A stretch of 64,000 nt of DNA from the sequence record PZ445432.1. One strand, written 5' to 3'. The notes beneath the pieces were generated by a model. The model had not been told where the DNA came from. It searched no databases and saw nothing but the letters and a program-made list of their open reading frames with translations. A program made the position numbers and the translations under genes. Below, in pieces: positions 26,818 through 59,749 of the stretch. Origin of the DNA: a phage. Position 1 is the first letter of the stretch. Every line of letters starts with the position of its first letter.

Positions 26818-27299
26818 TATTTAATTAAGTCCTCAACAGATGCATGATGTAGCCACGGCTCAAATAAACCAATTACGATTTCCATGTCTTTCTTATTTAA
26901 CACCATATGGGTACGACTCATTAAGTTGTCAACCATCGGGTCTGAGCTATCCAAAGCTATTAACCACTGTCCTCTGTCTTTCTTGAATATTAATGCAGGT
27001 TTGGAGTTCATCTGCTCACCTTCACGTGAGCACTGCTGCCACCACTTCTCTAGAGTGGATTCACCAACATTAAATAAATTACTTGATATATTATCATCTT
27101 TATACCACTTAACTTCGAAGCAGTATTTACTAATGTGTCCGCTTTGTGGTGGAAGGTAGATGTCACCTTTCAGTCCGTGGCTCTGGCCAAAAGCACCAGA
27201 GCCAGGAACACGTTCCCACTCAAGACCTGTACGCTCACGTAGAATATCTCTTACCTGATATTCACCACGTTTACCTTTCTCTCTACTATCTACAGCCAT
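26817..27299 (-). CDS. D14-like protein, possible PD-(D/E)xK-type nuclease
   Basis: 160 aa; GEYQVRDIL...GDIY...FEVKW pattern compatible with a resolvase-type nuclease fold. Confidence 0.4.
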   Translation of the reverse strand: MAVDSREKGKRGEYQVRDILRERTGLEWERVPGSGAFGQSHGLKGDIYLPPQSGHISKYCFEVKWYKDDNISSNLFNVGESTLEKWWQQCSREGEQMNSKPALIFKKDRGQWLIALDSSDPMVDNLMSRTHMVLNKKDMEIVIGLFEPWLHHASVEDLIK

Positions 27300-27808
27300 T
27301 ATTCCTCTGGGAAATTTAATACTGCGAAATCTCCGAAGTATTCTTTTGCTTTAATATCATAGGCTCTGGCAGCCTCCTCTAGTGTATTAAAAGAACCTAA
27401 GTTCTCTCTAATACCAGTATTGGGATTCTTAATTCTAGCCCTGGGTTTACCGTCCCTACCGTTAGGGAAATCTAAACCCTTATATTTAGTAGTCTTAGAT
27501 CTAGAAGCTCTATTTTGGGCTTGCTGAGACTTAGAAGCATTACGTAAGTTACTCGGAGTATCATTTTGTCTATCCCTATCTTTATGATCTACTGAATCAG
27601 CCCAAGTACCATTAGTCATAAAGTAAATTAAGTCGTATACCCTATATTCTGTACCTTTAATACTTGTTCTATAATATCCGTCTTTCGACTGGGATCCGAC
27701 TCTCGATCCTTTCTTTGCTGATCCTACTGATTTTCTATGAAATAGAACACCGCCCCTAATTTCATATCTATCCTGTAGAAATTCTATAGTTATGTCTTGC
27801 TTTTTCAT
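27299..27808 (-). CDS. HNH-AP2 homing endonuclease
   Basis: VDHKDRDRQNDTPSNLR (HNH_3-type) plus C-terminal GSFNTLEEAARAYDIKAKEYFG, a close match to the AP2 DNA-binding motif. Confidence 0.8.
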   Translation of the reverse strand: MKKQDITIEFLQDRYEIRGGVLFHRKSVGSAKKGSRVGSQSKDGYYRTSIKGTEYRVYDLIYFMTNGTWADSVDHKDRDRQNDTPSNLRNASKSQQAQNRASRSKTTKYKGLDFPNGRDGKPRARIKNPNTGIRENLGSFNTLEEAARAYDIKAKEYFGDFAVLNFPEE

Positions 27809-29643: not shown

Positions 29644-30601
29644 ATTTCGCAGCTCTAGCCAAGATTCTATCAATGTCGCCTTGAGATAGCTTCTCGACTT
29701 CACGGAAGTAAAGTTCAAGTTCGCCTAACATATCAAGATCAACAAGATTTAACTTAGCGTCTTTAGTAACTCGATGGTTAATCTTCTTATCTAATAAATC
29801 AGAGTCTTTGATAGACTTTAATTGAACAACGTCACCAGTAACTTCGTAGACTACACGATCATAATCACTAGGTTCCATCTCTTCACCTGCTCCGATTGTT
29901 TTACGAATCAGTTGTGGTAAATCACCTAGTTCAATCCATTCTACTTTTAATGTGTCGGTATCAATGATAAAGCAACCATTTGTACCTTTTGTGCGTTCTC
30001 TATGGAACGATGTAGTTAATGGAGATCCTGGGTAGAGGAGTCTAGTAGATCCGATAGTCTGGCTATTAGTATAAGAATGTAAATCGCCAGCAATTACAGT
30101 ATCATAACAGTTGTACTTAGTTAGATCGATTTCTGGTTTTACATGTGGTGGGATTTCACCACGAACATGCGTGAAACATAGTTTTGATTCAGCAGGTTTC
30201 CACTTGGGTTTATGAATCTCATCATACGGAACAATATCAAATTCAGGGGAACGATATGGTTTGGTAATTACTTCCCATTTCCCACTAGTTACTTTATTAA
30301 TAACCCCTGCGTAATGATATAGACATGAAATGGTTTTAGTTATTAATTCATGATTACCTGTAAATACCATTCCTATATGATCTAGCCTAGACATAAATTT
30401 TTCTAGAAGTTCTACTTCTTCCGACGACGGGTCGGAATGATCAAATAAATCACCACCAATAATATGCAAATCACAGTTATGATTATGGAATATATCATTT
30501 AGACGGTCTCCCAGCATTAAGAATCTTTTCTTCTGCCATTCTTTGGGAATTTTATCTTGCCCAAGTTTTATATGGTGATCAGCACTAAAGAGTATTTTCA
30601 T
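29624..30601 (-). CDS. SbcD/Mre11-like nuclease (T5 D12-like)
   Basis: calcineurin-like phosphoesterase motifs (SADHH, GDLFD, GNHE); 3' end overlaps the D13 start. Confidence 0.8.
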   Translation of the reverse strand: MKILFSADHHIKLGQDKIPKEWQKKRFLMLGDRLNDIFHNHNCDLHIIGGDLFDHSDPSSEEVELLEKFMSRLDHIGMVFTGNHELITKTISCLYHYAGVINKVTSGKWEVITKPYRSPEFDIVPYDEIHKPKWKPAESKLCFTHVRGEIPPHVKPEIDLTKYNCYDTVIAGDLHSYTNSQTIGSTRLLYPGSPLTTSFHRERTKGTNGCFIIDTDTLKVEWIELGDLPQLIRKTIGAGEEMEPSDYDRVVYEVTGDVVQLKSIKDSDLLDKKINHRVTKDAKLNLVDLDMLGELELYFREVEKLSQGDIDRILARAAKYVKDYN

Positions 30602-31128
30602 GATCTGGCAAATTCTCCGTGTAGTCGCCTACGTTCCCTATCAGCTACTACTTCTGCTTCTTGAATAGTATCATAATATCCAAAGTATTTTGTTTCTCCA
30701 TGGATTTTAAACTGAACCCTATACTTATGTCTCCCAGGTATCCAATATACATTTTTAACACCTGTGGTACTATTAGATCTTACGCTTGTGTTTCTTTCAT
30801 TACCTGATTTATTAGTTGGTCTTAGATTATTCCATCTATTGTTCTTCTTATCTAAGTCTTTGTGGTCTACTACTTCTGCCATTTCATTAGTCTGCATGGC
30901 ATAAATAATTAAATGTACAAGATACTGCTCATTATTAAATGAGGTTCTTAAATACCCTTTTCCATTATCCGTGCCTACTATAGATCCTGCTAACTGACCA
31001 CCCGTTCCTACTTTCCTAGAGAGTAGACCGGACTCAGGATCATAGGAAAATCTTTCTCTGAATTTATTTACTAATAAAATGAATTTTTTAGGGTCTTCCA
31101 AAAATAAGGAATATAGCTTATTTCTCAT
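30598..31128 (-). CDS. HNH-AP2 homing endonuclease
   Basis: VVDHKDLDKKNNRWNNLR plus C-terminal KYFGYYDTIQEAEVVADRERRRLHGEFA AP2-like motif. Confidence 0.75.
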   Translation of the reverse strand: MRNKLYSLFLEDPKKFILLVNKFRERFSYDPESGLLSRKVGTGGQLAGSIVGTDNGKGYLRTSFNNEQYLVHLIIYAMQTNEMAEVVDHKDLDKKNNRWNNLRPTNKSGNERNTSVRSNSTTGVKNVYWIPGRHKYRVQFKIHGETKYFGYYDTIQEAEVVADRERRRLHGEFARS

Positions 31129-37795: not shown

Positions 37796-39258
37796 ATATC
37801 GCTGGCCTGTTCACCTGTTGAATTTTCAGTTTTATCTTTCTTAGCACGTTTAGATTGAGCTGGCTTATCCTTTTCAATAGGGATAATGAACTCAGCTTCC
37901 ATTTGAGATATATCTTCCATTGCTAGGTTGGTAGTGTTATCCATCCGCAGAGTTTCCCAGTTCATCTTAGGCATAAACTTCACGCTACCAGAAGAACGGG
38001 TCTTAACGAAGTCAAACATAATAGCACCTTGACCATTATCAGCTTTTGCAGCATTAAGATTAGCAGCCATGTCTGCGGAATCAAGAATCCCCTTTGACAT
38101 ACGTGTTCTACCATCTTGATCGATCTGGTAAGGAGCTACGCCAGCCACGTTATGTTTCTGGCAGATAGATTTGAAAGACGAGCTAACAACCATCTGTTCT
38201 TTCCAGTCATACATATCAATGGTTTTAGAATCTGGAAGTCGGGTTTGGTTAATATAGTCAAGTAAAGCTACTGTAACCTTATCCCCATATCTAGCAACTA
38301 ATTTATTTAACTCTACGTCAACTGTTGTAATAGACAGCTCAGGGTCATAAACAATAATCATAGGAGTATGTAGCTCATATCCTTCTATTAGCTTACTTTC
38401 CATATCGTAGAAATCACTCATCTTAGCCATTGTGTACTGTTTAACGAAGTTATCGAAAAGCTCTTCACCACCATTAAACATTCTAGCTCTAGTTCTGGCT
38501 AATCTCAACAGAGCTGCACCTTCTAGAGTATTATTACGCATTGCTAATGCTGATACACCAGCTAACATGGCTAGATTACGTCTAAATACTTCATGTTCTT
38601 TCATCTCAATTGAGAAGTATGGAGCAATATCCCCATTCAAATATTGCTGAACCTGTATGTTTGAACAGATAATGGATTTACCAGTACCACGCCAACCACC
38701 AAGCAGTAACGTTTCTGTGCGAGCTAAACCAATTTGAGCGTCGAACTCATTACAAATACCAAGAGCGATTAAATTCAGTTTGGTATCTTCTTCTCTCTGG
38801 AAAATACGCATGTTATCTGCGTTGAATACTTTCCCAGTATTCGTTACTTTCTCTTCTAATTTTAAGTGAAGGGAGGCAACTCGGTTAAGAATTTCTCCCT
38901 GATCCAGCATTGTTAAATCTTGAAGCACGTCTGTTTCTAGAAGCTTCAGGAATAAATCCTGTGTATACTCGGCCTCTAGGACTTCAAGTGCCTGTTCCAT
39001 GCTAACTTCTGGAATTTGAGTGTTAGCTAAAACGACTAGAGCTTGAGAAAGGCGGGCGTTCCTATTAGCCTCAAGCATCAGTGCGTCAATGGACGGCATT
39101 GTGTTATATTTTTTATAATAATTCTGGACGGCTTGGTAAATTGAGGAGAAAGCGTCATTAAAATGATCTTTATGCAGTTTTGAGAATGTTTCCAATGCTA
39201 TTTGCTTCTGTTCGGAAGCTAGAAGCATCTTCAACACTACAGCTTGCACGTTAAACAT
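37792..39258 (-). CDS. replicative DNA helicase (DnaB-like)
   Basis: 488 aa; Walker A GGWRGTGKS and RecA-like C-terminal domain. Confidence 0.8.
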   Translation of the reverse strand: MFNVQAVVLKMLLASEQKQIALETFSKLHKDHFNDAFSSIYQAVQNYYKKYNTMPSIDALMLEANRNARLSQALVVLANTQIPEVSMEQALEVLEAEYTQDLFLKLLETDVLQDLTMLDQGEILNRVASLHLKLEEKVTNTGKVFNADNMRIFQREEDTKLNLIALGICNEFDAQIGLARTETLLLGGWRGTGKSIICSNIQVQQYLNGDIAPYFSIEMKEHEVFRRNLAMLAGVSALAMRNNTLEGAALLRLARTRARMFNGGEELFDNFVKQYTMAKMSDFYDMESKLIEGYELHTPMIIVYDPELSITTVDVELNKLVARYGDKVTVALLDYINQTRLPDSKTIDMYDWKEQMVVSSSFKSICQKHNVAGVAPYQIDQDGRTRMSKGILDSADMAANLNAAKADNGQGAIMFDFVKTRSSGSVKFMPKMNWETLRMDNTTNLAMEDISQMEAEFIIPIEKDKPAQSKRAKKDKTENSTGEQASDI

Positions 39259-39832
39259 TATTTAGCAACTCCTCTGTAAAGTTATCCGCTATATTCTGCG
39301 GTTTAACCCTCTCTATATCTAGAGCATCTAGGGCTGCGAAATCTCCGTACAAGGCTAAAAGCAGCTTATCTCTATACCACAGAGCTTCTCCTAGAGTTTT
39401 TAGGGTTTTTCTAAATACTTTGGAGTTTTTAGATATGGTTACTTTAAATGTGTTATTTTTTGTTACTTCTATGTTACGAATGCCTAGCTTGTTACCTATA
39501 AAGCTATTAGCGGAATTTTGAGAGGAAGTAACTTCACGTAAGTTATTCCAAGTATTATCAGTTTTAATTCTATTTTTATGATCAACCTTGTCAGGGATTT
39601 CTCCTTCCATATATAGAAAGGCCCACCTATGCGCTCCCATAGATTTTTGTATACCTGACTCTAAGGTTATCTTTATGTAAATATAGCCTGATGAATGCAT
39701 ATAGCCTGCAGGTTTGTTAGCGTGCTTAGCATTGAACGCAGGATTATTTTCTCTAGGTAGCCAGTAGAAATTTCCAGTATCAGGCTCATATCTTAATAAT
39801 GTTTTAAGATACTGCTGGGTAATCTCCCCCAT
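39251..39832 (-). CDS. HNH-AP2 homing endonuclease
   Basis: VDHKNRIKTDNTWNNLR plus a C-terminal AP2-like segment. Confidence 0.7.
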   Translation of the reverse strand: MGEITQQYLKTLLRYEPDTGNFYWLPRENNPAFNAKHANKPAGYMHSSGYIYIKITLESGIQKSMGAHRWAFLYMEGEIPDKVDHKNRIKTDNTWNNLREVTSSQNSANSFIGNKLGIRNIEVTKNNTFKVTISKNSKVFRKTLKTLGEALWYRDKLLLALYGDFAALDALDIERVKPQNIADNFTEELLNNV

Positions 39833-57978: not shown

Positions 57979-57987
57979 TAAAAACAA

Positions 57988-58013
57988 GGAGATCTTCGGG
58001 TCTCCTTTTTCTT
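57988..58013 (+). terminator. rho-independent terminator after nrdA
   Basis: ggagatc-ttcg-ggtctcc followed by TTTTTCTTT. Confidence 0.6.
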
Positions 58014-58024
58014 TGAAATTTTAC

Positions 58025-58053
58025 TTGCTAATCGCTACCAGATTTGCTATAAT
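58025..58053 (+). promoter_or_regulatory. promoter TTGCTA-17-TATAAT dedicated to the nrdA-nrdB homing endonuclease
   Basis: hexamers read on the plus strand. Confidence 0.6.
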
Positions 58054-58079
58054 ATCTCCATTAGTTAAGGAGATTAGTT

Positions 58080-58595
58080 TTGATAACACAAGATGAATTA
58101 AAAAGGATTCTGGAGTATAATCCAGATGAAGGAACATTTACTTGGTTAAATAACCAGGAAGTACACAATAAAGTAAGGGGACTACCTGCTGGCTGTTTAA
58201 AACCCCACTCAGTAGATCCTAACCGAAAAGACTTAGTAATACAAATCAAGGGTAAGAAGTATCCCGCACAAAATATTGCTTTCCTGTACATGACAGGAAA
58301 CTTACCTAAAGTTATGGTTGACCATATAGATGGAGATTCACTAAACTATAAGTGGGCTAATCTAAGAGAAGCAGACTGGCAGTTAAATAGTCAAAATAGA
58401 AAAACTAGTAAAAACAATATATTGGGTACTAAGAATATTCGGAAGAAAGGGTCTGGATTTCAAGTTAGAAAATCCATTAACGGAAAAGAATATGTGAAAA
58501 CTCTCCCAACTCTAGAAGAGGCGATAGAGTATCGAGATTCTTTAATCCTCTCTATAACCAAAGATCCAACACTACTTAGAAACACAGATAAATAG
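58080..58595 (+). CDS. HNH-AP2 homing endonuclease between nrdA and nrdB (TTG start)
   Basis: VDHIDGDSLNYKWANLR plus C-terminal VKTLPTLEEAIEYRDSLI AP2-like segment; AAGGAG 8 nt upstream of TTG. Confidence 0.75.
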   Translation: MITQDELKRILEYNPDEGTFTWLNNQEVHNKVRGLPAGCLKPHSVDPNRKDLVIQIKGKKYPAQNIAFLYMTGNLPKVMVDHIDGDSLNYKWANLREADWQLNSQNRKTSKNNILGTKNIRKKGSGFQVRKSINGKEYVKTLPTLEEAIEYRDSLILSITKDPTLLRNTDK

Positions 58596-58603
58596 GAGAA
58601 CTA

Positions 58604-59749
58604 ATGACAACTTTACTTAACTTAAACTGGGATCATACCAATAAAGATCTATTTCTCGGTGATTCTCTTGGTATTGCAGATTATGTACGAGTAGCCCATC
58701 CAGAGCTGGAAAGGCTGGCGTTATTAGCTCGCTCTCAATTCTGGACTGAAACTGAAATCAGTCTGGAAGCAGATAAGAAACAATGGCCTAATCTCCCACG
58801 AGAAATTCAGGAAATTACCCTCCTGAATTTAGCATGGCAGACTCAAACTGATTCCTTTATCAGTCGAGCGCCTGAAGCAGCTATTATGCCACTTGTAAGT
58901 CGTCCAGAATTGGAAGGTATGCTAAAGCAGTGGAGCTACTTCGAAGACCTGCATAGTCGCGCCTATAGCAATATTATTCGTAATGTGCTGACTGATCCAG
59001 CAGAATTTATTGATTCTGTAACCAAAAACCAGGAAGCATTCGCACGCATCGCTGATTCTGTTGAACTGTTCGATGAACTGTATCAGTTAGGTCAGTATTT
59101 CCTCGCAGTACGCGATCATCGTGGTGACAATACATATCCAGAAACTGAGTTCCCTGAAGTTAAACGTGAAACTCAGGCTAAACTATTAGACGCTTACTTT
59201 GCGATCTATGGTCTGGAAGCAATGCAGTTTTACGCATCCTTTGCATGTACTTTTGCTCTAGCAGAGAACGATATTCTGCAAGGTATTGCTAAGAACCTGC
59301 AATTAATCGCTAAAGATGAGGCTCTGCACACCCAGATGTCTAAAGCAATCATCCAGATTATGTTCCAGCAGTTTGACAAAGATCTGGTAGATGAAGCAGT
59401 GGCTAAAGCACCAGCACAGCTCCTGAAAACTCTGAAAACTGAAATTGAATGGGGTCATTTCATTTTCAAAGGTCGTAGTCTGATTGGCTTGAATGCAGAA
59501 CTTCTAGAAGAATATCTGTACTTTGTGGGGCGTAATGCATTTATGCACATCGGTGTAGAATGGCCTAGTCATTTACCAGTAATCACTAAGAACCCCATTC
59601 CGTGGATCATGAACTGGCTGGATACCACTTCTTTACAGCCTGCTCCACAAGAAATCCAGATTGGTGCAGCCTACCGTGTAGGTCAGGTAACTGAGACCTC
59701 TACTGATACTCTGAAAGATCTGGGTAATGAATTTGGAGATTTCTTATGA
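58604..59749 (+). CDS. nrdB: ribonucleoside-diphosphate reductase beta subunit
   Basis: 381 aa; di-iron ligand-type motifs (EAMQFYASFA, EALHTQ) and overall R2 architecture. Confidence 0.85.
   Translation: MTTLLNLNWDHTNKDLFLGDSLGIADYVRVAHPELERLALLARSQFWTETEISLEADKKQWPNLPREIQEITLLNLAWQTQTDSFISRAPEAAIMPLVSRPELEGMLKQWSYFEDLHSRAYSNIIRNVLTDPAEFIDSVTKNQEAFARIADSVELFDELYQLGQYFLAVRDHRGDNTYPETEFPEVKRETQAKLLDAYFAIYGLEAMQFYASFACTFALAENDILQGIAKNLQLIAKDEALHTQMSKAIIQIMFQQFDKDLVDEAVAKAPAQLLKTLKTEIEWGHFIFKGRSLIGLNAELLEEYLYFVGRNAFMHIGVEWPSHLPVITKNPIPWIMNWLDTTSLQPAPQEIQIGAAYRVGQVTETSTDTLKDLGNEFGDFL

Follow-up and report, generated by a model that had tools for sequence, protein, structure and literature searches.

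A predicted free-standing HNH homing endonuclease gene, orthologous to T5 hegH, lies behind a conserved nrdB promoter in a T5-like phage

The open reading frame (ORF) between nrdA and nrdB in the window, that is, the whole stretch of 64,000 nucleotides of phage DNA that was analysed (record PZ445432.1), was found to be the ortholog of the T5 gene hegH (P-TflVIII) in Escherichia phage HildyBeyeler. It is very probably a free-standing, intron-less HNH homing endonuclease gene, carried in a cassette behind a pre-existing nrdB promoter, for which we infer homing. The cassette directly follows TATAATAT, the -10 region of the nrdB early promoter, where it has taken the place of the native 29-nt nrdB leader and brings its own SD and TTG start as well as a new SD for nrdB. 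According to the proposed mechanism, in a mixed infection the enzyme would nick or cut the endonuclease-less allele, most likely at the 5' end of nrdB, and recombinational repair would then copy the cassette along with some 126 nt of nrdB sequence that is linked to it and resists cutting. The features and the record counts are collected in Table 1.

The 1.6-kb stretch around the feature was 100% identical in DNA sequence to HildyBeyeler (Bas33, MZ501074, Tequintavirus) and 93% identical to phage T5, a window coordinate being the MZ501074 coordinate minus 482. In MZ501074 the ORF is annotated as bas33_0063, "putative homing endonuclease", and the TTG start is annotated there too. In T5 records the ortholog is hegH (T5.095), "putative H-N-H-endonuclease P-TflVIII", preceded by an annotated promoter marked 'putative' and, in one record, also by a terminator, and the DT57C record names it "nicking homing endonuclease F-TflVIII". 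The T5 hegH product showed 98% amino-acid identity and occupied the same slot with the same promoter, SD and TTG start, but is 174 aa long compared to 171 aa in HildyBeyeler. Niu et al. 2012 (PMC3326045) had described an HNH endonuclease at the nrdA-nrdB junction of T5-like phages and compared it with T4 mobE, so the gene was already known. The mentions of TflVIII found in the literature were in descriptive genome papers, and no biochemical or genetic test of P-TflVIII was found among them.

The first-pass annotation had described the ORF as a fourth HNH-AP2 homing endonuclease splitting nrdA from nrdB. The count was borne out by three paralogs elsewhere in the window, which lie among replication genes on the minus strand and all have ATG starts. 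The location at the junction was also correct, with nrdB starting at 58604, but no gene is split, the endonuclease gene sitting in the intergenic nrdA-nrdB spacer. In the DT57C record (L004:2059-2289), the label 'putative H-N-H-endonuclease P-TflVIII' is given to an ORF of 76 aa that lies within the endonuclease gene on the opposite strand, an annotation that is almost certainly an artefact; the equivalent ORF in the window is 58061-58291 on the minus strand. The annotated nrdA start also differs among records (window 55540, 55585 or 55645). The start in T5 AY543070 corresponds to 55540 (812 aa) and that in HildyBeyeler to 55585, and a shorter product, of about 776 aa, is given in T5 AY587007, DT57C and SSP1.

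Table 1. Features of the nrdA-nrdB junction and related sites in the window, and classes of junction among the phage records compared.
Feature	Position or number	Strand	Remark
nrdA intrinsic terminator, hairpin and T-run (predicted)	57986..58016	+	hairpin 57986-58007, 9 bp
T5 early-type sigma-70 promoter, native to nrdB (predicted)	58025..58055	+	TTGCTA, 17 nt, TGcTATAAT, then AT
Left end of cassette, endonuclease leader with SD AAGGAG (58067-58072)	58056..58079	+	diverges from empty site right after TATAATAT
HNH_3 endonuclease gene, hegH / P-TflVIII ortholog	58080-58595	+	ORF encoding 171 aa, TTG start
Replacement nrdB ribosome-binding site AGGAG, cassette-borne (predicted)	58594..58603	+	overlaps endonuclease stop codon
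Endonuclease-linked nrdB variant block, first 126 nt	58604..58729	+	fixed differences vs empty-site phages
TTG-N20-TATAATAT promoter-like sites	15062, 32452, 41490, 42937, 44153, 48820, 54444, 58025, 61155, 61987, 62782		
Paralogous HNH_3 ORFs in window	39251-39832, 30598-31128, 27299-27808	-	21-41% identity to 58080-58595 product
This endonuclease (at least 80% amino-acid identity) at nrdA-nrdB junction	about 75 records		
Native promoter-leader-nrdB junction intact	299 records		
SP01-type endonuclease, upstream of promoter	about 43 records		mostly subset of the 299
SPC35/AKFV33-type endonuclease, same slot	29 records		
rokbiter-type endonuclease, same slot	34 records		

The HNH half of the domain assignment was recovered by Pfam, with PF13392 (HNH_3) matching residues 62-98 at 31.9 bits compared to a cut-off of 24.8 (E 1e-7). 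Among 105 homologs, D81, H82 and N106 were invariant and N94 and N103 were conserved in at least 90%, and the D81/H82/N94/N106 pattern aligned with the catalytic motif of I-HmuI, the HNH nicking enzyme of Bacillus phage SPO1. A sequence search of the PDB gave only a marginal match to I-HmuI (E 0.43). The AlphaFold model built on the homolog alignment (pLDDT 93.6, pTM 0.82) contained strands at residues 120-123, 126-133 and 136-142 and a helix at 145-160. I-HmuI (PDB 1U3E) was its best structural match in Foldseek (probability 1.00, E 1.4e-3, with a global TM-score of only 0.39), the DH...N...N pattern being found in both proteins. In contrast, the identity between the two was just 17%, I-HmuI is intron-encoded, and it has a different C-terminal DNA-binding module.

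The AP2 half was not seen by Pfam, as PF00847 gave no match in the 58080-58595 protein even at E<=10. A C-terminal AP2-like DNA-binding domain was indicated indirectly, residues 117-160 matching the AP2 part of HNH_3 plus AP2 endonucleases by family profile and predicted fold, here below Pfam detection. When the family profile was aligned by hhalign with an AtERF1-type plant AP2 sequence, the match had a probability of 96.5% (E 7e-10, residues 117-170), and Foldseek also showed weak similarity of the fold to the arm-binding domains of integrases and to an AP2 domain from Plasmodium. Pfam AP2 was matched elsewhere, by window paralogs at E 0.047 (27299-27808, with the most AP2-like C-terminus) and 0.13 and by the homolog P0008 at E 2e-6, and more than half of the full-length homologs among the matches listed had the PF00847 plus PF13392 architecture. 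The best explanation is a protein with an I-HmuI-like HNH (His-Asn-Asn) nuclease core joined to an AP2-like C-terminal domain.

The TTG codon proposed in the first-pass annotation as the opening of the ORF was confirmed by several comparisons. AAGGAG was located 7 nt ahead of it, an in-frame TAG occurs upstream at 58062-58064, and until codon 71, which is the first in-frame ATG, TTG 58080 is the sole in-frame ATG, GTG or TTG. A start at codon 71 would drop the nearly invariant family residues Y13, G18 and G38. The homologs P0008 and P0010 open with MITQDEL at the position of the TTG, and AAGGAG, spacer and TTG were kept in 5/5 distinct ortholog sequences examined. The ATG that had been suggested as an alternative start (58092) is located at 58093-58095 in the +1 frame, where it opens a two-codon ORF (ATG AAT TAA). 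The prediction of a genuine TTG start is therefore well supported, since it is the sole start that keeps the conserved N-terminus. Related endonucleases in the same slot and more distant orthologs had ATG, GTG or TTG starts, and a non-ATG start appears to be frequent at this junction, not universal.

It is plausible that the TTG keeps the endonuclease level low. An unlikely variant of this reading is that expression is limited not by the TTG alone and that the SD is hidden by an RNA hairpin in nrdA read-through transcripts and free in those begun at about 58060 by the captured nrdB promoter. An inverted repeat that could sequester the SD was present (ATCTCC 58054-58059 and GGAGAT 58069-58074; -6.0 kcal/mol, z -1.4, not significant alone), its pairing was kept as G-U in DT57C, an 8-bp analogue was found in the rokbiter-type endonuclease (z -2.6), and the same arrangement has been described for T-even endonucleases (T4 I-TevI and Aeh1 mobE; PMC2988022). 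However, 17/200 shuffles folded equally well, no complement to the SD was seen in the leaders of distant orthologs, as judged by reading without folding, and the strong terminator upstream already curbs read-through. A comparable hairpin in the native nrdB leader was unsupported (z +0.8).

When the nrdA-nrdB junctions of related phages were compared, with empty sites that included T5_ev219, SSP1, LVR16A and 13 further IMG/VR loci, the empty-site spacer was found to be 106-107 nt long and to contain this hairpin and promoter too, followed by TCCTGAAATAGTGAGAAAGAGGAAAATCA and the nrdB ATG, nrdB thus coming 29 nt after the promoter. Carriers matched the empty sites through TATAATAT and diverged at the next base, 58056. 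The last 50 nt including the promoter were 49-50/50 identical between carriers and phages without the insert, and the last 100 nt upstream of the insert were 98-100% identical among the pairs comparable without gaps. The native 29-nt nrdB leader was missing from carriers, the cassette AGGAG standing in place of TCCTGAAATAGTGAGAAAGAGGAAAATCA. Matches to an internal nrdB promoter inside the endonuclease ORF reached only 9/12 and were not above shuffles, and since no convincing internal promoter was present, the endonuclease gene would most likely be the first cistron of an nrdB-frd-thy transcript. In the T5 copy the stop codon TAG (window 58593-58595) reads CAG, making the product 3 residues longer (L002:2592-2603), and the endonuclease stop overlaps the nrdB start as TAATG, whereas the HildyBeyeler and DT57C copies end 3 codons earlier. 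This overlap suggests a tighter translational coupling in T5.

The junction comparison that the first-pass annotation had called for covered 446 phage records with both flanks, RefSeq and GenBank duplicates counted in, and the endonuclease was present in some and absent from others, with about 75 carriers compared to about 256 empty sites. The BASEL phage collection holds both states, HildyBeyeler being a carrier and SuperGirl having an empty site. Four endonuclease lineages were found to use the nrdA-nrdB junction across T5-like phages. The AKFV33 ORF96/SPC35-, rokbiter- and SP01-types are related HNH_3 proteins at the same junction (28-43% identity), the AKFV33 endonuclease having been noted there earlier (PMC3326045). 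Each is nonetheless a separate lineage that has linked nrdB variants of its own, and their start codons are ATG or GTG.

The SP01-type (Salmonella phage SP01, L007:880-1484; also L015 and L032) was positioned upstream of the nrdB promoter, where a hairpin of its own, GGGGCGAAAGCCCC, takes the place of the nrdA terminator and both the promoter and the native nrdB leader are left undisturbed. In the SPC35/AKFV33-type, the annotated ATG is just 6 nt past the -10 hexamer (TATAATATCTATATG; SPC35, L008:940-960; also L017) and falls at the expected transcription start, which would mean a leaderless mRNA, expression from read-through transcripts only, or another start codon. Metagenomic relatives carried more insertions in ribonucleotide reductase genes (L034:511-3909, L035:401-880 and L038:1528-3027). 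One metagenomic nrdA of 1132 aa matched LAGLIDADG_3 and probably contains an intein; an extra HNH_3 gene was seen upstream of nrdA, and some nrdB products were lengthened to 428-500 aa.

Carriers and empty-site phages were separated by 25 fixed differences, all within nrdB nt 6-126, with none in nt 127-300. In the first 50 nrdB codons, 22 differed silently and 2 changed the amino acid. The densest cluster of differences was nrdB nt 117-126, which read GCACTTCTGCAACG in 17/17 empty-site copies despite variation at neighbouring silent sites, and each of the three classes with an insert behind the promoter departed from GCACTTCTGCAACG. The SP01-type copies were split at these positions, two having the hegH-type variant and one differing by a single base. 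SP01 itself has the hegH-type nrdB 5' variant without hegH, which could be the footprint of an earlier occupancy or of recombination. The nrdB block probably represents a tract of co-conversion, a variant of the target that resists cleavage, or both; it could also reflect simple hitch-hiking and not target-site immunity.

The location of the block invites comparison with T4 MobE, a free-standing HNH endonuclease in the same nrdA-nrdB slot with a target in the 5' end of nrdB, which is likewise expressed from a host-gene promoter and not its own (PMC2790892). MobE nicks T2 nrdB at nt 122-126 (Wilson & Edgell 2009, PMC2790892), and when T4 nrdB was used as a proxy for T2 in codon numbering, the NrdB N-termini aligning with a one-codon offset, this nick site mapped to about nt 119-123 of HildyBeyeler nrdB, inside the densest cluster. 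Homology to T4 MobE was considered and rejected (BLASTP E 9.6, hhalign probability 0.1%; MobE belongs to PF01844 and not to HNH_3). The gene product thus appears, by analogy, to resemble MobE in position and likely mechanism and not to be a MobE family member. Because MobE is not homologous to the 58080-58595 protein, a shared target would represent convergence. That the T5-family enzyme nicks endonuclease-less nrdB at about nt 117-126 (GCACTTCTGCAACG), convergently with MobE, is a tentative idea that we consider doubtful.

The similarity of the ORF among carriers fits the recent spread of a functional gene. Between carrier pairs, the ORF showed 97-99% nucleotide identity compared to 93-95% for nrdB nt 127-1126, and silent to replacement changes in the ORF ranged from 3:2 to 15:0, a pattern that shows purifying selection at the sequence level. 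Because the ORF was more alike than nrdB and silent changes predominated, a functional gene would have spread later than the backbones diverged. Beyond about nt 750 of nrdB, T5 and chee24 were 96-100% identical per 50-nt window, yet they differed in endonuclease carriage. Distant metagenomic relatives had orthologs of 56% identity in this slot too, again preceded by an analogous promoter. Taken from presence and absence, the linked block and the ORF similarity, the prediction of a mobile, free-standing homing endonuclease gene is supported.

An immobile remnant, decaying or domesticated and kept since nrdB needs the cassette ribosome-binding site and transcription through the cassette, would agree with the replaced nrdB leader and SD, through which a simple deletion would hurt nrdB expression, and with an AP2 domain invisible to Pfam. 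This alternative appears quite improbable, as the catalytic residues are intact, silent changes far exceed replacements between carriers, near-identical genomes differ in carriage, and the greater similarity of the ORF than of the backbone fits recent spread. The mobile homing endonuclease gene is therefore retained as the preferred reading.

The sequences upstream of the cassette were those of the empty site. The terminator hairpin reported after nrdA in the first-pass annotation was found with its T-run (-12.5 kcal/mol, z -2.7, folding vs shuffles), and its sequence was identical in empty-site phages; it is older than the endonuclease insertion. The TTGCTA-17-TATAAT site was likewise located, at 58025-58053, with 10/12 consensus positions and an extended -10 (TG ahead of the -10 box), and it was the sole 10/12 promoter match within the 6.5 kb scanned. 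TTG-N20-TATAATAT occurred at 11 sites in the window compared to 0.14 expected by chance, so chance does not account for the match at 58025-58053. All 11 sites had an A/T-rich upstream region, TTGnnn (TTGCTn in 7/11) and 17-nt spacing, and several of them presumably resemble classic strong T5 early promoters. The 58025 site thus shows the pattern of the T5 early promoters as a class (TTGnnn, 17 nt, TATAAT and an A/T-rich upstream region). No mapped start was found for it among published T5 transcription data.

According to Klimuk et al. 2020 (PMC7472727), every known T5 early promoter has an ATATT element at the -10/discriminator region. This element was absent here, carriers reading TATAATATC compared to TATAATATT in empty sites. 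The insertion turns ATATT into ATATC, the C at 58056 being the first inserted base. The equivalent position was T or A in the other ten promoters of the class and C at the 58025 site alone, and through this change the strength or timing of the promoter may differ from that of the empty site.

In the first-pass annotation the promoter was taken to be dedicated to the endonuclease; that the endonuclease imported it within the mobile cassette is highly improbable in spite of its place directly upstream of the ORF and its being the best consensus match in the region, since the same promoter precedes nrdB in phages without any gene at the junction, 299 records retain an unbroken native promoter-leader-nrdB junction, divergence begins only after TATAATAT, two other endonuclease lineages lie behind the same promoter, and the identical native leader in those 299 records argues against empty sites being deletion derivatives that kept a cassette promoter. 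The comparison indicates instead a conserved T5 early-type promoter of nrdB that would now also drive the endonuclease gene.

These findings place the nrdA-nrdB slot as one contested by four endonuclease lineages, and the linked block directs the search for the target to the first approximately 126 nt of nrdB. If the proposed target is true, HNH enzymes of two unrelated lineages, in two phage families, would have converged on the same few nrdB codons. If the competition is as proposed, at least three HNH-AP2 lineages would be rivals for the slot, each with a resistant nrdB variant and with cassette-dependent nrdB translation. By capturing the nrdB early promoter and replacing the nrdB leader and ribosome-binding site, the cassette would tie the expression of an essential-pathway gene to a selfish element, and the dependence of nrdB on the cassette probably favours cassette retention.
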